32,000 bases of DNA from Candidatus Saccharimonadota bacterium (GCA_016700015.1 CP064995.1:780001-812000); one strand, 5' to 3'. Shown: positions 1 through 9,287, counted from the stretch's first letter. Translations and numbers: made by a program. Notes: a model not told the origin generated them from the letters alone.

Positions 1-2010
1 GCAGCGAAACTTGTTAAGGCTAGTGTTGTAGTACATGGCCCCGTTGAAACCACCTGGGTCAGTTGCTTGATTGTATGAATCGAGTACGAAGAGTGCGGCA
101 TTACTATCGGTTCCGGGTAGTCCTATCTGCACCGTAAAGTTAGTCGTGTCAGCCGTAAATAAATTTACTCCAGCGGCATTGTTGATCTGCACGGCCGTTG
201 TTGAATTGGTCGCATTCTGCAAATTCACTCGTCCACCTACACCGAAGTCACCATTAAACTGCACACTTTGCCCAACTGTCAGTGCACCGCTTATCTGGGC
301 TGCCGACCCAACACTCAGCCCGCCATTAATGATCGCGTCGCCCACCAACTGCGTGTTGCCATTAACAGACAACGTACCGAGCTCTGCCCCTCCGGCCTCG
401 AGTTGCTGAACGTAGGCACCACCGACGTCATAGGTTGTAAGTGTATTGGACGTGTAATTAATGACGTAGGCGTAGCGGCCAACAACGCTCACAGCGATTG
501 GCAAGTTACCGGTTCCAACAGTTCCAACACTAGCAGGAGCGGTCGGCGTCGATACATCATAAATACCGAGGGTGTTACCGGTTCCGTTTGTGACGTATAC
601 GTAGCGGCCTTGCACACTGAGAGACTGGGGTGAAGACCCAGTCGCAACTGAGCCGACGCTGGTTGGCGAAGCAGGATTCTTCACGTCAATCACATTGAGT
701 GCGCTACCGCCATTGTCAATAATATAGGCATAGCGACCCTGAACCGAAACTGCTTTTATATTCGTCCCGATTACTAGTGAGCCTATTACGCTCAGGCTGG
801 CGGGGTTACTAATATTCACAATGTTTAGTGTTGAGTTAGTATTATCAACAATATAGGCATACACACCCTGAATATAGACTGACTGCAATGCGCCTGCACC
901 GATACTAAGCGAACCTGCAACGATTGGTGCGGACGGATTACCGACATCGACAATGGTAAATGTGCCGCTGTTACTACCGACGTAGGCGTAGCGACCTTGC
1001 ACATACACCGAATATGCGCCAGCGACTGATGCTGACCCCATACTCGTTGGGCTTGCTGGGTTACTAACGTCATATATGCTTAATGTGTTACCAACTGCAC
1101 TTGTCACGTAGGCGTAGCGACCTTGCACCGCCACGAAATAGGCGTTAGTACTCGAGATGGTGCCAACACTGACTGGGCTTGCTGGGTTACTTACATCAAA
1201 GACTTTAAGGGCACCAGACGTCGAGTTTGTAGTATAAGCATAACGGCCTTGCACAGCGACTGATCGGGTCGCCGTACCCACGGCCACTGAACCAAGTGAA
1301 GCAGTTGGTAGTCTGCCGCTGACATAGAGTTGGCCAGTACTTGTGCCAAGCGTGCCAACCATGAGCCGATTTGCAGTCGTGTCAACCCTCATAACCGTCG
1401 TTGAGCCAGCTGCATTTTGAACCTGAAAAGCTGTTGCGCTATCAACCTTGATTAAGTTGGTAGACGTCCAGGTGTTACTTGCCCCTACCTGCGCAAAAGC
1501 ACTCGAATCCAACCCATCCAGTAGGTCGGAGTTGAAGCTGTAGGCGCTGGAGGCTAGTTTGTTTCTGGGGGTCATAGGTCCTTCAGTGTAGGATTCACAA
1601 GATGCACCAGTACAGGTAGCTGTAGCGGGGGTTGGGAGCTCTATCTCAAAGTACAGGGTAGCAGTGTCGGTGGTACTAAAGATATTAGCAGGCAGACTCG
1701 ATACATCACCGAGCTGGACACTGAACAGACCGCCAGTGGTGACAGTAACACCAGTACTAGCGCTATTGGCACGTTGCTCACTCCACTTTAGGGTTCCCCC
1801 ACTACTGGCATCATAGATACGGAATTTCATGTTGTAGGTACCAGCAGCCATAGGGTTACCAGAAGCATCGGTCAGGCGGCCTTGGAAGTTTAGCTTGTAG
1901 GGGATGGTGGTGAGGGCGTGAATATTATTAGATACGCAAAACAGCGCTACAAATCCGGAGATAAATGGTAGCGCGAACAATAACAACAACGATTTTTTAG
2001 TCGTGTTTAT
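1..2010 (-). CDS. Large secreted adhesin-like protein, paralogue A. The 3' end runs off the window. Contains a signal peptide, a conserved head module, seven LVIVD-like beta-propeller repeats and a MYYN..KFRC module. Start codon uncertain.
   Basis: The minus-strand frame is open from nt 2025 to nt 1. It has no stop in the window, so it is absent from the ORF track. My translation reads ..KKSLLLLFALPFISGFVALFCVSNNIHA/LTTIPYKLNFQGRLTDASGNPMAAGTYNMKFRIYD.., continues through seven ..VQGRYAYV.. repeats, and ends ..DPGGFNGAMYYNTSLNKFRC at nt 1. There is no ATG or GTG at the 5' end. ATA at 2010..2008 aligns with the TTG start of the paralogue; the first in-frame TTG is at 1989. Confidence 0.8.
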   Translation of the reverse strand, partial: MNTTKKSLLLLFALPFISGFVALFCVSNNIHALTTIPYKLNFQGRLTDASGNPMAAGTYNMKFRIYDASSGGTLKWSEQRANSASTGVTVTTGGLFSVQLGDVSSLPANIFSTTDTATLYFEIELPTPATATCTGASCESYTEGPMTPRNKLASSAYSFNSDLLDGLDSSAFAQVGASNTWTSTNLIKVDSATAFQVQNAAGSTTVMRVDTTANRLMVGTLGTSTGQLYVSGRLPTASLGSVAVGTATRSVAVQGRYAYTTNSTSGALKVFDVSNPASPVSVGTISSTNAYFVAVQGRYAYVTSAVGNTLSIYDVSNPASPTSMGSASVAGAYSVYVQGRYAYVGSNSGTFTIVDVGNPSAPIVAGSLSIGAGALQSVYIQGVYAYIVDNTNSTLNIVNISNPASLSVIGSLVIGTNIKAVSVQGRYAYIIDNGGSALNVIDVKNPASPTSVGSVATGSSPQSLSVQGRYVYVTNGTGNTLGIYDVSTPTAPASVGTVGTGNLPIAVSVVGRYAYVINYTSNTLTTYDVGGAYVQQLEAGGAELGTLSVNGNTQLVGDAIINGGLSVGSAAQISGALTVGQSVQFNGDFGVGGRVNLQNATNSTTAVQINNAAGVNLFTADTTNFTVQIGLPGTDSNAALFVLDSYNQATDPGGFNGAMYYNTSLNKFRC
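410..1300 (-). repeat. Seven tandem in-frame repeats of about 129 bp (43 codons), LVIVD-like, inside paralogue A
   Basis: The DNA motif gta(g/t)gc(g/a)ta(g/a)cg(a/g)cc(t/c)tgcac recurs near 472, 603, 733, 862, 990, 1115 and 1245. It encodes V-Q-G-R-Y-A-Y-V followed by ..L.(I/V).DVSNPasP..vG. Confidence 0.8.
1471..1920 (-). repeat. Copy 1 of a roughly 450-bp direct repeat (head-module coding sequence shared by the two adhesin paralogues)
   Basis: Hand alignment with 4080..4526 shows about 93 % identity over 1507..1920 versus 4113..4526, with one 3-nt indel near the distal end. Confidence 0.9.
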
Positions 2011-2081
2011 TATTTTTCTTCCCGTTTATTATTTATTTTCTCCACACCACTCATAGGTAATGAGAGTATGGCTCATAATAA

Positions 2082-2110
2082 GTTATACTGGTTGTGTTTA
2101 CAAATGTCAA
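2082..2110 (-). promoter_or_regulatory. Sigma70-type promoter upstream of paralogue A
   Basis: On the minus strand: TTGACA (2110..2105), a 17-nt spacer, then TATAAC (2087..2082). Confidence 0.5.
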
Positions 2111-2160
2111 ACAATCCAAGTGATGCCAGTACGCTAATCTGAGCGCAAAGGCTACTGCAG

Positions 2161-2652
2161 CTACTGTTTAGCCTTGAGCGCTTGGCTTATTTTGCTGTCA
2201 TCGCGGAGGTTCTGCCAAAACACTACTTGACTCGACTTTATGGCCATGGTGTCTTCTGGGCCGTATAGTTGGTCGCGAACACGCAAAAGCGTTGTAGTTT
2301 GCTCTGTATCTTTGTTACTCGCCTGCTGTGCAGGTGTTTGTGCGGTATACGGACTACTGACAACCAGGTATTCACCACGAGTATTCTGTAGTTTACCAAA
2401 GTATGCTTGTCCGTTTGTCAGATAGATCACTTGATACTTTGAGGGATCAATTGGTGTATCGCGACCATTCAGAGCATATAGCACTATCGCAAAAGTCAAG
2501 ATACCAGCAAGCATCACTGCACCCATTAGCGATAGTGAAGACGTTATTCGGGGTGTGCCTCGTCGCAACACAAACCGCTTGCGAGGTACAGCAACCGGGC
2601 GGCTCTCATCTTTTAGCGCTTCATCAGACTTTGACTTCACTTCTACCTTCAT
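2161..2652 (-). CDS. Small membrane-anchored protein (single N-terminal TM helix), function unknown
   Basis: 163-aa ORF with a basic N-terminus, the TM helix LSLMGAVMLAGILTFAIVLYAL and a soluble C-terminal domain. A TATACT box lies 6 nt upstream of the ATG. No family recognised. Confidence 0.7.
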   Translation of the reverse strand: MKVEVKSKSDEALKDESRPVAVPRKRFVLRRGTPRITSSLSLMGAVMLAGILTFAIVLYALNGRDTPIDPSKYQVIYLTNGQAYFGKLQNTRGEYLVVSSPYTAQTPAQQASNKDTEQTTTLLRVRDQLYGPEDTMAIKSSQVVFWQNLRDDSKISQALKAKQ

Positions 2653-2658
2653 ACCACT

Positions 2659-2664
2659 AGTATA
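2659..2664 (-). promoter_or_regulatory. -10 box (TATACT) 6 nt upstream of ATG 2652; putative leaderless promoter
   Basis: Minus strand reads ggTATACTagtggtATG, with TTCACA 18 nt further upstream. Confidence 0.45.
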
Positions 2665-2670
2665 CCTGAC

Positions 2671-3063
2671 TTACCGTGCGGTTGTGAATTCCATCTCGGC
2701 TTGCAAGTAGTCGATGTCGACTGTCCGAGCCGTCGTACCGACCGATTTGAGTATTTGTGAACCAAAACCAAGCGCTCGAGCAGTACCGGTCGGGATATTG
2801 GCCGTATGAGTCGCCACTAGTGTGCCATTGATATAGAACCCGACACTGGTACCAGCTGCATTGACAATGATGCCAAGTTTAACCCATGTACCTGCACCGA
2901 CTGCCGTGGTGGTGGTGGTCCACGTCCGAGTGCTGTTCGAAGACGTGACGACTTGCCAGTTTGCGCTCGCCGTCGAACCAGTCGATACACCACCTTCATC
3001 ATAGACAAAACTGACAGCATCGACTTGGTTAGCCGTGGTCGAATCATAGAAGCCGACTACCAT
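2671..3063 (-). CDS. LamG/ConA-like jelly-roll domain. Most likely the frameshifted C-terminal part of ORF 3057..4622 rather than an independent gene.
   Basis: 130-aa ORF with ..TWVKLGIIVNAAGTSVGFYINGTLVATH..IDYLQAE... Its frame stays open upstream of the ATG. It joins the 3057..4622 frame if one G is added to the G5 run at 3127..3131. Confidence 0.6.
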   Translation of the reverse strand: MVVGFYDSTTANQVDAVSFVYDEGGVSTGSTASANWQVVTSSNSTRTWTTTTTAVGAGTWVKLGIIVNAAGTSVGFYINGTLVATHTANIPTGTARALGFGSQILKSVGTTARTVDIDYLQAEMEFTTAR

Positions 3064-4622
3064 GCTATAGCGATTCGTCGCACCAGAAAGTGTCGTGACG
3101 TTGACGGCTGTTTCGTACAGTGTGAGCCCCCACCTAATGCTAATGCATTTGTTGTCGAGCCGAATGCCGCTCGTCCGGTCGTCGTCGTACCAGTCGTCGA
3201 ACGAAATGTACCAGGGCGGTTTGTGGCAATGGTTGCGTTACTCGTCGCTGTGGCAGCACCGGTGCCAGTCGAGCTGGCGAAAACATCACCCGTTGTCGTA
3301 AATGACCCCAGCAGGTCATTGGCATAGCGATAACCCGATGTAGAGTCAGTATTGCCGATACAATTACGCCATATGCCAGCTTCATAGCAGCGAAAGGCAT
3401 CTTTCGCGGTGCTATAGTACATCGAACCAGCAACCCCAGTCGGGTCGGATGCCGACGAGGCGTTGCTGAGTACAAGGGTAATTGGGTTGGTTGTTACCGA
3501 TGAGCCGCCGATATATATCCGCGCGCTTGTACTATCAGCGACAAATAGCTTTGTGCTGGCGGCAGTTTGTAGCGTGAAAGCCGTTGCCGACGCCGATGGC
3601 ACAGTAAATTGCGCTGCACCAGTGCTGCTAACATCAAAGAGCGCTGTACCGAGCCCACCGGCATTACTCCCCCGCACGGCAAATAACGTACCAGCAATGG
3701 TGGTATCGGCATCTTGAATATCGAACCCGGCCCGTGTGGCATCAGCCTTGATCTCCGGTGTTGTGCCACCAGTCGAGGCGGTGTAGGCCGTCTGCAGCGT
3801 CGCGCCGCCAGCAGCCGTAATACAATCCGTCCATGCGCCCTGGTAGCAACGAAACTTACCCGACGTTGAGTTGTAGTACATCGCACCGTTGGTCGATGTC
3901 GCACCCGCTCCAGGATCTGCAGTGTTAGTATCGAGCACCAGCACCTGACTAGTGCTATCTGCAGTGCCTATCTTGACCAGCGCATTTGCGGTATCAGCTG
4001 TCAGTACATTGGTACCACTTGCGCCAACAGTAAATGCCATGCTGCTCGACAGGTTCACGCCAAGTGTACCGGTAAAGCTGGTGTTACTCCCTACCTGTGC
4101 AAACGCCGCACTATCCAACCCATCCAATAGGTCACTGTTAAAGCTGTAGGCGCTGGAGGCGAGTTTGTTTCTGGGGGTCATGGGGCCTTCGGTGTAGGAT
4201 TCACAAGATGCACCAGTACAGGTAGCGGTAGCGGGGGTTGGGAGTTCGATCTCAAAGTACAGGGTAGCAGTGTCGGTGGTACTGAAGATGTTAGCTGGCA
4301 AGCTCGATACATCACCAAGTTGGACACTGAACAAGCCGCCAGTGGTGACGGTGACACCAGTGCTAGCGCTGTTGGCACGTTGTTCACTCCACTTTAGGGT
4401 TCCCCCACTACTGGCATCATAGATACGGAATTTCATGTTGTAGGTACCAGCAGCCATAGGATTACCAGAAGCATCAGTCAGGCGGCCTTGGAAGTTTAGC
4501 TTATAGGGGATGGTGGTGAGGGCGTGGACAGAGGCCGGGAACGCAAAATTGACCAGGAATGCCATGATTGCTGGTACAGCGAAGAATAACACCGCTTGAA
4601 TTTGTCTTTTAGTGAACCTCAA
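3057..4622 (-). CDS. Large secreted adhesin-like protein, paralogue B (probably truncated by a frameshift)
   Basis: 521-aa ORF with a TTG start and GGAG 7 nt upstream. Signal peptide ..FPASVHA/LTT. The head module is protein-identical to paralogue A. It carries two G.MYY..FRCY..W..C modules. The last roughly 22 aa (SHCTKQPSTSRHFLVRRIAIAW) look like out-of-frame read-through. Confidence 0.8.
   Translation of the reverse strand: MRFTKRQIQAVLFFAVPAIMAFLVNFAFPASVHALTTIPYKLNFQGRLTDASGNPMAAGTYNMKFRIYDASSGGTLKWSEQRANSASTGVTVTTGGLFSVQLGDVSSLPANIFSTTDTATLYFEIELPTPATATCTGASCESYTEGPMTPRNKLASSAYSFNSDLLDGLDSAAFAQVGSNTSFTGTLGVNLSSSMAFTVGASGTNVLTADTANALVKIGTADSTSQVLVLDTNTADPGAGATSTNGAMYYNSTSGKFRCYQGAWTDCITAAGGATLQTAYTASTGGTTPEIKADATRAGFDIQDADTTIAGTLFAVRGSNAGGLGTALFDVSSTGAAQFTVPSASATAFTLQTAASTKLFVADSTSARIYIGGSSVTTNPITLVLSNASSASDPTGVAGSMYYSTAKDAFRCYEAGIWRNCIGNTDSTSGYRYANDLLGSFTTTGDVFASSTGTGAATATSNATIATNRPGTFRSTTGTTTTGRAAFGSTTNALALGGGSHCTKQPSTSRHFLVRRIAIAW
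4080..4526 (-). repeat. Copy 2 of the roughly 450-bp direct repeat (head-module coding sequence)
   Basis: See the feature at 1471..1920. Confidence 0.9.
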
Positions 4623-4672
4623 TTACTAGCTCCGTTTAATGCGGCTAAGGTATAGTATACTGCTTATGACAA

Positions 4673-5560
4673 CTATTTGACAAGGATTCGAGTAACTTTT
4701 TTGTGAGTACGATACCTATGTTTTTTTCGTCGGTTATATACATAGAGCGCTATCACAATCAATGCAACGGCGATAATCGGCATGAGCCAGCGCCAGTAGC
4801 CAGTTATGGCAAAGACTACTCGTGATTTGCTGTCACCCCCAGTCGAGGCTTCAATTAGTACAAATCCGAAGTAATTACCCGGCTGTCGGTAGTCAATGGT
4901 ACGGGTCCGGCCACTAAAGACAAGTGGGCCCTTTGCCGTAGTGGTACCATAGGGCTTCATGTCAATTTTGATCTTAGGGAAGAAACCGGTGGACAGGTTG
5001 GGATCGGCCGTATTGGTAACTGCTAGCTGGGCCTGCACTACCTCACCAATCTGCAAAAATGGTGCCGAAATTTCACTAATCGTCGCATAGTGTTGAGAGG
5101 GAGTTCCGTTTTGGATCATAAGCAGTGTACCCACTCGCACTGATTGCATCGCACTCAATGAACCGATGGGTGTTGTCGACGCAAAAATCACTGCAAATAC
5201 ATCTCCCCCAGGCAACTTTTTACTATCGATTGCAAATGCCAGCCGCAGCGTCTCGCGCGGGCCAATCTGCGCTTCAGTGTAGTCAAGTCGTATACCCGCT
5301 GCAATTTGTTCGCTTGGGTAAAACTGCAGCGACCCGTCATCATCAATCTGACGAAATGCCTGGACCTCAAATCGAACCGTTTGCGCAGTGCTATCGCTGT
5401 TTGAAATATCCACGAACCCCTTTTTGGTTTCGCCTTTTGCGAGCGTAGTTTCGTAACTGAGTGGTGCGGTGCGCAGCGACAGTGCCGATGCGTGCGCACC
5501 AATTGCTACAGAAACTGTCAATGCGCACACTACACCCCAGGCTAGATGCAATACTCTCAC
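4673..5560 (-). CDS. Cell-surface protein: signal peptide, beta-rich ectodomain, C-terminal TM anchor with a basic tail (CscA/DUF916-like layout)
   Basis: 295-aa ORF. Its GTG start overlaps the upstream stop (GTGA at 5557..5560). Signal peptide ..AIGAHASA/LS, C-terminal helix WLMPIIAVALIVIALYVY, then NRRKKHRYRTHKK. Homology to DUF916/DUF3324 is unverified. Confidence 0.7.
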   Translation of the reverse strand: MRVLHLAWGVVCALTVSVAIGAHASALSLRTAPLSYETTLAKGETKKGFVDISNSDSTAQTVRFEVQAFRQIDDDGSLQFYPSEQIAAGIRLDYTEAQIGPRETLRLAFAIDSKKLPGGDVFAVIFASTTPIGSLSAMQSVRVGTLLMIQNGTPSQHYATISEISAPFLQIGEVVQAQLAVTNTADPNLSTGFFPKIKIDMKPYGTTTAKGPLVFSGRTRTIDYRQPGNYFGFVLIEASTGGDSKSRVVFAITGYWRWLMPIIAVALIVIALYVYNRRKKHRYRTHKKVTRILVK

Positions 5561-6936
5561 GGGGTCATCGTTCCTGTAGTGGTAATCACATTGGTATATG
5601 TGCCAGTAGGCTGACTCAAACTGACATCAAGCCGAAGCCGCATATTAAGCACGTCTTTAGATGAGGGCTGGCCAGTACGTGTATAGAATGTGGTGCTCGT
5701 TCCTGGAAACGCGGCATAGGCCGCGCCACTACTCCATTTACCCGGTATCGCTGTTGCGTTGGTACCATACAGCGTAAAGCCGAGTCCTTTTGTCGTCCCC
5801 TCTACCCACGTCACAGGGCTCGCTATCGTGCCCGACACTGCATTAATAGTATCGGCACCTTTAGTGAGGTCATTATTCTGATTAACAGCCAACGTATAGC
5901 CATTAATCGAATCAGTTAGCACCACCGCATCGTAATTGCTTGTCTGCGAAATACCAGGCACGATGCCAGATGCAAACCCTAGTCCGGCGGTATTCCCAGC
6001 CACACCCGCGTCATATTCAGCTTTTACCTCGCTTGGTGTAAATGAGCGATTAAACATTTTCACTTCGTCAAGCGAACCATTAAAATACCTACCGAGGCCA
6101 CGCATCGCACCAATCGTCAGATACGATGAGCTGTCCTGTAATGAACTTGGTATCGTCCCTAAACAGACAGACATTGGGCGAACAACACCGTCAATATATA
6201 CCTTTGCTCGATCGAGTGCAGTGCTCTGCGTCCCATCATAGACAAGCGCAACATGATGCCATGAACCAGCCGACCAGGCTCCGTCTGTGTCGACACAGTT
6301 TCCGCCTGTATCGCCCTGACTGCTCGCGATAAAAACGCGCAGGACACTTGCACTTGTCCCGGTCTGCAGCGCCCATGAACTACTTACTGCTTGATTCCAA
6401 TGTGCAATGAGCGCTTTGTCCGTCGAGGCGGATGCCTGATTTGCCCAGAGTGAAACCGTCATGTTCTGGCTAAACGTAAGGTTGGCGCTGTCAGGCACCT
6501 GCACATACGAACTGGCATTGGCGCTAACGCCGTTTCCTACTTTGCCGGTCACCCATGTTGCACCAACCTGAAGATCAGCATTATTCGTGTTTATGCTGCT
6601 ATCTCTCGTGAACGTACCTGAGTTTTCTTCTAGTGGATAGTAGGCTTTCAGACCACCCGGCTGCACTGTCAGTTGCAGACTGTTCTTCAACTGCGCCACG
6701 TATCCACCGGCCAACATGTAGCTACCGCCTGCGCCATTACCAACAATACTTTCTCCACCGCTACCCGTCAGCTTATAGCTTGTTGAACTCTCGCTGCCAC
6801 CGAAATTATTGGCAACACTAGCATCGATCACGTAACTTGTCGATGTAAAGCGATAGGCGGCAATAGTATCAACAAAGCATCCTGCCAACACCAGCACAAA
6901 TGCCGTCATCATCCCCTTGGTATACATACCTCTCAT
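5557..6936 (-). CDS. Secreted LamG (Laminin_G_3 / concanavalin A-like lectin) domain protein with a C-terminal WxL-like domain
   Basis: 459-aa ORF. The block LKAYYPLEENSGTFTRDSS..TVSLWANQ..WHHVALVYDG..KVYIDGV..LTIGA..YFNGSLDEVKMFNRSFTPSEV fits the LamG signature. The C-terminal roughly 125 aa resemble the 202-aa protein at 8679..9287. Confidence 0.8.
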   Translation of the reverse strand: MRGMYTKGMMTAFVLVLAGCFVDTIAAYRFTSTSYVIDASVANNFGGSESSTSYKLTGSGGESIVGNGAGGSYMLAGGYVAQLKNSLQLTVQPGGLKAYYPLEENSGTFTRDSSINTNNADLQVGATWVTGKVGNGVSANASSYVQVPDSANLTFSQNMTVSLWANQASASTDKALIAHWNQAVSSSWALQTGTSASVLRVFIASSQGDTGGNCVDTDGAWSAGSWHHVALVYDGTQSTALDRAKVYIDGVVRPMSVCLGTIPSSLQDSSSYLTIGAMRGLGRYFNGSLDEVKMFNRSFTPSEVKAEYDAGVAGNTAGLGFASGIVPGISQTSNYDAVVLTDSINGYTLAVNQNNDLTKGADTINAVSGTIASPVTWVEGTTKGLGFTLYGTNATAIPGKWSSGAAYAAFPGTSTTFYTRTGQPSSKDVLNMRLRLDVSLSQPTGTYTNVITTTGTMTP

Positions 6937-6963
6937 GCTATGTTTAGTATAGCAAACTGTAAT

Positions 6964-7797
6964 CTATAGCGCCAAAAACGCAATTCCAAGCAATACGATA
7001 CCCAGGCCTCTCAGGAAAAAGAGTGTGTGGTGACGGACAAGTAACGGCAGTGCATGAATATTCCACTTTAAAACTTGGTAGCGGATCCAATGATATGCGA
7101 TGAACATCGAATGCGACAGCACAAGCAGCGCAGTACCGCCAACTATCAGCCAAAAACGTAGTAGCATTTTGCCAACAGCTTCAGCATTCGAAGAGGGTGT
7201 TGCAATATCGAGTAGTATCATCCCCTTATGGACTAGTGTGCTCAAATTGTTAACAGGCTTGGTGGTGGCCGCCTGGTCGATTTGCTGGTTTAAATACGAG
7301 CTGGTATCGATGACTCCCTGGCGAGCATCGCGGATCACATTTGGAACAGTTGAAGGTGTGCCGTTACTCGGCTGAGCAGATGGGTTATATACGATGGACA
7401 CTAGGTCGGGCACGGAATTACTCGTAAATGGATCTAGACCCTGTACGGTAATGTCGTGGTTGCCTATTGGTACGGCCACACTTAATGTAACTTGTGATGA
7501 GCCAATATCGACTGCAACTGTATGGCTATATACCCCATCAATGTAAATCATTACTTGGCCGATGTTATGGACTTGTATCGTAACATCTACTGGTGATGAA
7601 TTGAATACTGTACCCGGTACTGGTGCGACAATATTCAAGACAGCAGGCTGACCATCATAGACGGTTGTGCTAATTTCAGTCTCCATCGCTCGCACCGGAA
7701 GTGATGTAATACAGCATAGCACACCAGTAACAGCTAGGCTGAGGGCGAGTTTAAATACGCCTACGAGGCGTGTGTTTACGCTTGTCGCGCAAAACAT
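6964..7797 (-). CDS. Membrane protein with an N-terminal signal peptide, an Ig-like beta domain and two C-terminal TM helices
   Basis: 277-aa ORF with ..SLPVRA/METE.., the beta-sandwich-like stretch PAVLNIVAPVPGTVFNSSPVDVTIQVHNIGQVMIYIDGVYSHTVAV and hydrophobic C-terminal segments. It overlaps the upstream gene by 47 nt. Confidence 0.65.
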   Translation of the reverse strand: MFCATSVNTRLVGVFKLALSLAVTGVLCCITSLPVRAMETEISTTVYDGQPAVLNIVAPVPGTVFNSSPVDVTIQVHNIGQVMIYIDGVYSHTVAVDIGSSQVTLSVAVPIGNHDITVQGLDPFTSNSVPDLVSIVYNPSAQPSNGTPSTVPNVIRDARQGVIDTSSYLNQQIDQAATTKPVNNLSTLVHKGMILLDIATPSSNAEAVGKMLLRFWLIVGGTALLVLSHSMFIAYHWIRYQVLKWNIHALPLLVRHHTLFFLRGLGIVLLGIAFLAL

Positions 7798-8668
7798 TTG
7801 CTCCCCCTACTAGTACAAGTACTCCTACCACAAGTAGCAGCCATCGTGGCACAACAAGCACTATAGACTCTGTAGTCTTGTTCTCATTCAATAGTTGACT
7901 CTGGACAGAGACTCTAAATAATCCGATCCAGGGAGAGTTGTCCCAAGCCAACTCTGTACGTCGCGTAGTACTAGGGAGAATAATATTTTCGCTGCTTGTA
8001 CTGAATTTTTCCTGTCCAAACAGGTCTTTTACGGTCATACGCGATACTGCATTAAAGTCTGTTTTACCTGTATTCTCAACGACAGTTTCACTTTTTATAG
8101 GGGCGGCGGGCTGGAAGAAATCGAGCAGCAGGCTTTTTACCTTCCCCACTGTTTGTGTCTCACCTTTTACATTTGTATATAGTATCAGCCCAAGTCTTTT
8201 CTTGCGCGCAACTCCCATCTCATCTCCGTTTGGTAGCACCATTGTCTCAACAAAAATCGTCCCGTAGTGTCCACCCGCTGGGATACCGGCACCAACTCGG
8301 ACAGTAAAGGGCACTGTTACCTTTTGCCCAGCTTCGAGATGCCATTTACTTTGCGGAAATGAAACCCATTTGTAGGCGTCTCCGTTGCCAGTCTGTGTAG
8401 TGAAGTCTTGCTCATATTGTTCACCTTTCACGGAATATGGTGCAGTATAGACGGTAAAATCATATGACGTATCGCCGTCGTTGACGACAATAAATGAGTC
8501 ATTTGTGGTACCTCCTGCTTCAAGCTGTAGCCTTTTGGCTGCCGGAGACAGGGTTATACTATCCCTCTGCTCAGCGGCCGCCACAGTGCCAAAAGGCACC
8601 ACCGTGAGAAACAGGGCTATTGCTAGCCCCGTTCTCAGGCAAGATTGTAGAGTCTTGGCAATATTCAC
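7751..8668 (-). CDS. Cell-surface protein: signal peptide, two beta-rich domains, C-terminal TM anchor with a basic tail (CscA/DUF916-like layout)
   Basis: The ORF track gives 7751..8704. I prefer GTG at 8668, which has AGGAAG 6 nt upstream and does not overlap the stop at 8679. That start gives MNIAKTLQSCLRTGLAIALFLTVVPFGTVAAA/EQ. Other features: ..IPAGGHYGTIFVET.., and the C-terminal helix WLLLVVGVLVLVGGA followed by RDKRKHTPRRRI. Confidence 0.7.
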   Translation of the reverse strand: MNIAKTLQSCLRTGLAIALFLTVVPFGTVAAAEQRDSITLSPAAKRLQLEAGGTTNDSFIVVNDGDTSYDFTVYTAPYSVKGEQYEQDFTTQTGNGDAYKWVSFPQSKWHLEAGQKVTVPFTVRVGAGIPAGGHYGTIFVETMVLPNGDEMGVARKKRLGLILYTNVKGETQTVGKVKSLLLDFFQPAAPIKSETVVENTGKTDFNAVSRMTVKDLFGQEKFSTSSENIILPSTTRRTELAWDNSPWIGLFRVSVQSQLLNENKTTESIVLVVPRWLLLVVGVLVLVGGANVLRDKRKHTPRRRI

Positions 8669-8678
8669 ACAATTCTTC

Positions 8679-9287
8679 CTATTTTGCAGTAGCCGTGTAC
8701 ACAACTACGTCGGAGTACGTACCGGTAGGCTTACTTGAGTCAACTTTCGCAGCATACCATATATCAGTTACTTCGTTTGTTGCAACTGCTGAGGTATCCT
8801 TCAGTGTGAACGGTGAGCCGCTTGCTGGCATACCAGCCCATTTGCTTGTCGCAGATGTTGAGCTCGATTCAGCAGAATATGTTGTGTCAAATGGTGCACC
8901 AGGTGTCGCAAAACCCCATGTATTAACTGCAAGCGTATTAGGAGAGCCCACTGTGTTCGAGGAAGCGGCAATAGTATACGCACCGCTCACTAAGGTAGTA
9001 GTAGCATCAACATCTTGTACAGTTAGTGTATACCCGCTTGTACTATTACAGTTAATCGTGATGGCATCTTTTGCACTCGACTCAACGGCGCTCGCACCAG
9101 GGAGCAAAGAGAAGCTGACTTTGTTTGCTGTGCCTTGGGAAGTTGTTGTCATGCTTATTGTCGAGTTCACAGTTGCTTCTACGGTGACGTTTTGTGTAAT
9201 AGCACTCGCTGTTGGTGCTACGACCAGCCCGACAACAGCAATAACGCCAGCACTGGCGACTAACGCTGATTTTATGGGTTGTTTCAT
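8679..9287 (-). CDS. Small secreted beta-rich protein, WxL-like (first gene of the surface locus)
   Basis: 202-aa ORF with SD AAAGGAAAC upstream. Signal peptide ..VVAPTASA/IT. Motifs SGYTLTV, NTWGF, SKWAG and a C-terminal KPTGTYSDVVVYTATAK are shared with the C-terminus of the LamG protein. Confidence 0.7.
   Translation of the reverse strand: MKQPIKSALVASAGVIAVVGLVVAPTASAITQNVTVEATVNSTISMTTTSQGTANKVSFSLLPGASAVESSAKDAITINCNSTSGYTLTVQDVDATTTLVSGAYTIAASSNTVGSPNTLAVNTWGFATPGAPFDTTYSAESSSTSATSKWAGMPASGSPFTLKDTSAVATNEVTDIWYAAKVDSSKPTGTYSDVVVYTATAK

Follow-up and report, generated by a model that had tools for sequence, protein, structure and literature searches.

How can two genes share a domain that is identical in protein when the DNA of the two copies has diverged? 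The question is raised by fibre genes A and B, which lie at one end of a 32,000-nt stretch from a Candidatus Saccharimonadota bacterium (GCA_016700015.1, CP064995.1:780001-812000; the whole stretch is referred to below as the window). In both genes a signal peptide is followed by the same N-terminal domain, here called the head, which begins at the predicted signal-peptidase site (cleavage between xHA and LTT). The explanation preferred here, to which we give a probability of roughly 0.7, is that A and B encode secreted surface fibres resembling the mosaic adhesive trimer (MAT) proteins of Bdellovibrio bacteriovorus, that the head is constrained by a common partner, and that the DNA patchwork results from gene conversion combined with exchange between lineages.

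Alignment of window positions 1507-1920 with 4113-4526, both on the minus strand, is free of gaps and reveals 29 differences in 414 nt, distributed across 27 codons (MAFFT alignment with a codon tally). All 29 are synonymous, and the 138 encoded residues are identical. The differences comprise 21 transitions, five transversions and a 3-nt TCC/AGT switch between serine codon sets at codon 131. An initial annotation, made from the sequence alone, had counted about 29 synonymous differences in 414 nt by hand, including the TCC/AGT switch, and the computed alignment bears this out; the codon-aware comparison and dN/dS estimate that it recommended likewise reveal no non-synonymous difference between the heads. 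Identity in fact reaches codon 139, where copy A has the serine codon TCG and copy B has AGT; this second switch of codon set brings the count to 32 differences in 417 nt with 0 amino acid changes. Synonymous divergence (dS, Nei-Gojobori) between the two window heads is 0.34. The formal non-synonymous value (dN) is 0.014 despite the lack of any residue difference, because it derives only from mutational paths through the two serine switches. The differences are unevenly placed (3, 0, 8, 6, 6 and 9 in successive 69-nt bins, the last being of 72 nt), and the longest perfect run is 77 nt. The signal peptides are unrelated, as first described; the sequences downstream had been considered unrelated or only loosely modular, but similarity between A and B does continue weakly past the head, with 74.7% identity over the first 229 aa and a further module of 42% identity at A604-682 and B345-423.

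The absence of replacements between the two copies is not anomalous, because only about 6% of nucleotide differences in this family change an amino acid. Heads of different genomes differ by 48/2, 44/2, 43/3, 34/3, 64/5, 70/5, 52/2, 53/2, 12/1 and 15/1 (nucleotides/amino acids), and when 12 pairs are pooled, 33 of 564 nucleotide differences (5.9%) are replacements. At this pooled rate the probability of seeing none in 32 is 0.15, a rough figure since the pairs are not independent. Against its nearest relatives the head has a dS of 0.73-1.0 and a dN/dS ratio (omega) of 0.04-0.06, the value for the family being approximately 0.03-0.06. In addition, the head dS of 0.34 matches that of the gene B stalk, which adjoins the head and is not repeated; there, comparison of the window with the closest named genome, Candidatus Saccharimonas aalborgensis CP005957.1 (the reference; locus L001), gives a dS of 0.295 and three amino acid differences in 119 codons (post-head residues 172-290). 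The window pair is an ordinary draw from a strongly constrained family. The very strong purifying selection proposed at the outset is real, but at P of about 0.15 it is not extreme beyond the family rate. The silent-site pattern is ordinary population genetics and needs no new mechanism, although it is useful as a marker of the constraint on the head. Chance was also considered as the cause of the identity between the heads and was rejected.

The sole NCBIfam match of the head is to NF053851, Bdello_MAT_N (‘mosaic adhesive trimer family chimeric fiber protein’), with E = 5.6e-8. The same family, and no other, is matched by 13 of 15 Saccharibacteria heads, with a best E of 9.4e-11 and all scores under the curated cut-off. 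On this profile evidence, the head is a homologue of the Bdellovibrio MAT N-terminal domain that lies outside the Bdellovibrio subfamily. No match to the head is present in Pfam or PHROGs, and a PDB sequence-profile search with it was also negative. AlphaFold2 models the head as an all-beta sandwich with a core predicted local distance difference test score (pLDDT) of about 80. A PDB fold search with this model returned nothing at E <= 0.001, only T-cell-receptor and immunoglobulin (Ig)-like sandwiches, and a viral fold library gave only weak matches to Big-1 or BppU-like Ig domains (template modelling score 0.35-0.5); these searches led to no specific fold assignment. Modelled as a single chain, the segment following the head is disordered (pLDDT < 50), which is compatible with folding only on oligomerisation but is no proof of it.

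An exhaustive search recovers the head domain in 14,364 cluster representatives, 217 of them at E <= 1e-30. Among the best 150 of the 14,364 relatives, it is almost always situated at residues ~30-190 of proteins of 186-2480 aa. Programmed frameshifting, or a recombination hot spot after LDGLDS, had been suspected from short matches (88-237 aa), several with tails that appeared out of frame. This was rejected: the short matches were set aside because the exhaustive search finds heads on proteins of 186-2480 aa, and are attributed to the bias of a word-indexed search and to fragmentary contigs.

The C-termini joined to the head include an LVIVD propeller (gene A), an SO2946-like jelly roll (gene B), right-handed beta-helix/NosD bodies and tips without an assignment. 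Gene A is 925 codons long in a contig that extends past the window edge (L002), has a Pfam LVIVD match with E = 2e-41 and six or more LVIVD propeller repeats, and in this full-length form continues into more stalk and then a C-terminal domain without a family assignment. Direct repeats with a 129-nt period at window 712-1262 (family D2) correspond to the propeller blades. Gene B matches Pfam PF22237 (SO2946-like_C) over model positions 1-163 of 163 (E = 2.8e-41), across a repaired frameshift. Neither gene B nor the gene A C-terminus matches PF13884 (Peptidase_S74), which some LVIVD relatives do carry. To judge from these matches, A and B would be a non-S74 type of MAT-like fibre.

The initial annotation had advised tabulating the domains fused to the head, and had pictured a docking module with exchangeable cassettes behind it. 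The tabulation does place varied C-termini on a common N-terminus, and the picture holds for the constant head and the interchangeable ends, while the docking and the partner are still inferred. The constant gene order makes a partner encoded in the locus plausible: the head gene is directly downstream of homologues of p317, p277, p459 and p295 in about 25 loci of diverse Saccharibacteria, often with a p163 homologue next. Nearly every locus in which that stretch was recovered has a p295 homologue directly 5' of its first head gene, and p295 is a candidate docking partner of the head.

Comparison of the window with the reference reveals a mosaic. Nucleotide mismatch is approximately 40% upstream of 4800, 3-15% at 4780-3780 and 0% at 3780-2681; it is 18-37% in p163 (2680-2098), 0% at 2000-600 and 1-6% at 600-1. 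Near-identity stops at the gene A stop codon. In protein, identity to the reference is 99.4% for gene A, 99.3% for the 3' part of gene B and 67% for p163, and 28-76% for ten neighbouring genes. Such gene-bounded blocks suggest cassette-like horizontal exchange of A and B. Head copy A itself is part of a 1.4 kb block whose identity to the reference is 100%. A search with the LVIVD body of gene A found many repeat-containing relatives of up to 54% identity and no near-identical copy among the matches listed.

The reference also differs from the window in its heads. Over 444 nt of DNA, its two copies do not differ from each other or from window copy A, and the 29 differences are found only in window copy B. 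A frameshift divides reference gene B (L001 10001-11895) into parts of 169 aa and 445 aa. It falls precisely where the 444-nt A-identical tract has its 3' end, 4 nt being missing relative to an in-frame A/B chimera, and may have been left by gene conversion or have arisen as a finishing artefact. In the lineage of L023 and L024, two heads 3 kb apart are identical at nucleotides 1-276 and then have 12 differing sites, and both L023 heads carry T4A and L10M relative to the window. Contigs of the APMI01 metagenome (L046 and L047) break off within the head, as expected if the head is an exact repeat in that population. In the window pair, the 5' third is the more alike, with 3 of 35 polymorphic sites discordant as compared with 29 of 66 elsewhere (Fisher P = 2.5e-4). 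Over the 3' third, copy B has eight differences from the head of locus L033 but 15 from copy A. At codons 131 and 139, the alternative serine codon sets are common to several lineages. The initial view, that the diverged DNA speaks against gene conversion, is contradicted by these sister genomes, in which paralogous heads are identical over 444 nt (reference) or 276 nt (L023). The divergence within this chromosome which that view implied fits poorly with the copy A block, which has 100% identity to a genome in which the genes nearby show no more than 28-76% protein identity. Because of this block, shared with an otherwise distant genome, the 29 differences are more likely those of two diverged alleles that recombination has united in one genome.

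The 77 nt of perfect match suffice for homologous recombination, and the initial annotation proposed that the repeat could delete the DNA between the heads. Locus L033 and locus L023 (2905-6417 in each) are 100% identical over 3.3 kb upstream; where a single head gene, with a beta-helix body, is found in L033, the L023 locus carries two head genes and p163. The 3' third of the L033 head is of the L023 second-head type. Such a layout would be expected of an L023-type locus after deletion between its heads, or of the reciprocal insertion, and L033 may be a variant of this kind; the L023 sequence is cut within its second head, before the body of that gene. The best match of the L033 protein in the protein collection is 63%. 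Deletion mediated by the head repeat is plausible, as was proposed. The structural polymorphism between L033 and L023 is apparently mediated by a repeat of at least 470 nt that comprises signal peptide and head. A further observation concerns the metagenome-assembled genome MFD10512 bin63, in which L008 starts and L019 ends inside the head, with 41 identical codons in common. Assembly was broken here by the head repeat, a hint that this genome too has more than one head.

On the preferred explanation, each fibre would consist of a signal peptide, the all-beta head of ~139 aa, a stalk and a variable C-terminal binding part. The head would form the cell-proximal end and hold every fibre on one common element of the Saccharibacteria surface, for which the candidates are the proteins encoded by the four conserved upstream genes, two of which are predicted to be membrane-anchored. 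The variable ends would contact the host bacterium. If all fibres must fit the same partner, the head would be under very strong purifying selection throughout the clade. Paralogous heads within a genome would be repeatedly homogenised by gene conversion, and whole fibre genes exchanged between distant Saccharimonas lineages. Copy A would then be an aalborgensis-type allele and copy B an allele approximately 7% away, the two differing only at silent sites.

An artefact, in which one head copy is an assembly duplication, a possibility raised at the outset, or a chimera of two strains in a metagenome bin, is highly improbable. The window is not free of errors, and its resemblance to a mosaic of blocks identical to another genome might itself be taken as a sign of chimerism. 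Gene B is frameshifted at a minus-strand run of five Gs, producing a 521-aa open reading frame (ORF) and a 130-aa ORF at 2671-3063, where L002, L003 and L004 carry six Gs and would encode an intact gene B of ~650 aa; the shorter run reflects an error of assembly or else variation in homopolymer length. Five other samples, however, provide contigs (L002-L006) that match the window at 99.7-100%, with no difference within either head, and together span both heads and their junctions in data from other samples and assemblers. L002 corresponds to window 4257..1 plus 1.9 kb past the window edge, L003 to 6294..1838, with copy B reproduced exactly and gene B intact, and L004, L005 and L006 to smaller parts of the region. 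On sequence evidence, the same arrangement in five independent contigs rules out an assembly duplication, and the two copies also have 29 differing sites and different flanks.

Two biological alternatives remain to be weighed. An old duplication within this chromosome, followed by silent drift under purifying selection with neither conversion nor import, as the initial annotation had it, would account for 29-32 differences that are all silent; the family-wide constraint is strong enough to permit such drift, and the exchange with the reference lineage may have run in either direction. It is nevertheless an unlikely history, as it leaves unexplained the 1.4 kb identity of the copy A block to a genome with such divergent neighbours, the identical or nearly identical paralogues in other genomes that share lineage-specific substitutions, the significantly more homogeneous 5' third, and the 3' third of copy B that is nearer to the L033 head than to copy A. 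Selection could alternatively favour the silent differences themselves, if they reduce recombination between the direct repeats and protect the 2.6 kb between them from deletion. Identical heads do coincide with damage elsewhere, reference gene B being frameshifted at the tract end and L033 resembling a head-to-head fusion of an L023-type locus, and the longest perfect match between the window heads is just 77 nt. As head and adjoining stalk have equivalent dS, though, there is no extra silent change to explain, and other lineages tolerate identical heads; we regard this idea as quite improbable.

Several points weigh against the preferred explanation. The Bdello_MAT_N match scores 32.8 bits, below the curated cut-off of 60, and so falls short of membership by sequence; it covers profile positions 8-81 of 162, approximately the first 80 residues of the head. 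Part of the A-like tract in reference gene B could be a finishing artefact, given the frameshift at its end. The order of events may also be the reverse: the window lineage may be the donor of gene A, its heads having always been diverged, with the reference B head converted later, in which case the equal dS of head and post-head sequence would be a coincidence. Trimerisation, surface display and docking are inferred, and the common partner is a hypothetical one, as it is in Bdellovibrio.

Phage tail fibres and tailspikes combine a conserved N-terminal part that binds the baseplate with an exchangeable C-terminal part that binds the receptor. The genes described here are alike in having a constant, putatively docking N-terminal module, variable distal modules and mosaicism at module borders generated by recombination, and the beta-helix and S74-type bodies of head relatives are typical of tailspikes. 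They differ in lying in a chromosomal operon near polA, dnaG and rpoD, with no phage genes nearby, and in a head without a PHROG match. A prophage-encoded tail fibre was considered and rejected, since the neighbours are chromosomal housekeeping and surface genes and PHROGs gave no match. Gene conversion is also known to cause concerted evolution of paralogous surface-protein genes, for example Neisseria opa and pil and the Plasmodium MSP genes. Here too, paralogues are closer than orthologues, conversion tracts have sharp ends, and old dimorphisms are shuffled between copies; the difference is that conversion would keep the module constant rather than generate antigenic variants, and no silent donor cassettes were seen.

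The closest likeness is to the MAT proteins of B. bacteriovorus, which, like A and B, have a long fibre, diversified and swappable C-terminal binding domains and several paralogues per genome, in an organism that, like Saccharibacteria, lives by attachment to other bacteria. The MAT C-terminal tips are diverse and swappable (PMC10769870, Caulton et al. 2024). No homologue of the N-terminal domain is present in the PDB, and the domain's presumed role is to bind an element on the surface of the predator itself (PMC10769870). The present system differs in that its bearer is a Saccharibacteria epibiont and not a Gram-negative predator, that genes A and B lack the S74 chaperone and have an LVIVD propeller and an SO2946-like jelly roll as tips, and that head genes are in a conserved operon with four other surface proteins, an arrangement for which no Bdellovibrio counterpart is described. 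MAT-like chimeric fibres are a known kind of system, of which the putative members in Saccharibacteria are new; literature searches found no published description of this locus in Saccharibacteria. The by-products of greater interest are the operon's conservation and a transfer of fibre genes between distant lineages that resembles cassette exchange.

How ultrasmall epibiotic Saccharibacteria and other members of the Candidate Phyla Radiation (CPR) choose and hold their hosts is largely unexplained, and mainly type IV pili have been implicated so far. The locus points to a second candidate system for host attachment, with an invariant cell-side domain, swappable outer ends and a conserved operon, and near-identical fibre genes amid neighbours of 28-76% identity suggest that such determinants move between lineages. 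A more speculative proposal, which we hold only tentatively and think may well prove wrong, is that p317, p277, p459 and p295 form with the MAT-like fibres a dedicated and conserved surface apparatus of Saccharibacteria. The head would serve as a universal plug, and fibre genes would be traded as cassettes between distant lineages of the same community, making host range horizontally transferable, with the head repeat driving fibre gain and loss. If true, the host-recognition determinants of an uncultivated CPR group become directly nameable and testable.

Table 1. Positions of the fibre genes, their parts and the neighbouring genes in the window
Feature	Position	Strand	Description
Fibre gene A, 5' part	1..2013	-	Signal peptide, head, stalk, LVIVD beta-propeller repeats, stalk; continues beyond window edge
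Head copy A	1504..1920	-	139 codons (HALTT...LDGLDS), N-terminal domain of fibre gene A
Signal peptide of gene A	1921..2013	-	Sequence unrelated to gene B signal peptide
p163	2161..2652	-	Small membrane protein between fibre genes; adjoins head genes in other Saccharibacteria too
Fibre gene B	2671..4622	-	Signal peptide (4622-4527), head, stalk, C-terminal SO2946-like jelly roll
G5 homopolymer	3127..3131	-	Frameshift site in window gene B; G6 in three other assemblies
Head copy B	4110..4526	-	139 codons, same protein as copy A, 32 nt differences, N-terminal domain of fibre gene B
p295	4673..5560	-	Secreted, C-terminal membrane anchor
p459	5557..6936	-	Secreted LamG/concanavalin-like protein (Pfam PF13385, E = 1e-25); in upstream block by synteny
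p277	6964..7797	-	Hydrophobic C-terminal segments; conserved upstream block
p317	7751..8704	-	Secreted, C-terminal membrane anchor; conserved upstream block

The window represents bacterial chromosome, with polA, dnaG and rpoD at 14-21 kb (Table 1 lists the features nearer the fibre genes). A wider block, p202-p317-p277-p459-p295 (window 4673-9287), is conserved and resembles a surface-assembly operon. A signal peptide is combined in p317 and p295 with a membrane anchor at the C-terminus that bears a basic tail, and the C-termini of p202 and p459 contain a similar strand motif (PTGTYxxVxxxT). No significant family was found for p202, p317, p295 or p163 in NCBIfam (E <= 0.1), Pfam (E <= 0.01) or PHROGs (E <= 0.01). 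The upstream block is itself mosaic between lineages: between the window and L023, p459 is 50% and p295 81% identical.

The start codon of gene A is uncertain, and may be TTG at 1986-1984 or ATA at 2013-2011. There is no ATG or GTG ahead of the signal peptide, and the sole standard starts are TTGs within its hydrophobic core (1989-1978); a Lys-Lys n-region would be translated only from an ATA at 2013 or 2010, behind a GGGAAG motif. Gene callers differ, choosing a TTG in the reference and an internal ATG in L002. Pairs of sigma-70-like hexamers, identified by consensus match only, are present just 5' of gene A, p163 and gene B (2075-2103, 2659-2688 and 4654-4683, minus strand), and two of the three share the -10 sequence TATACT.

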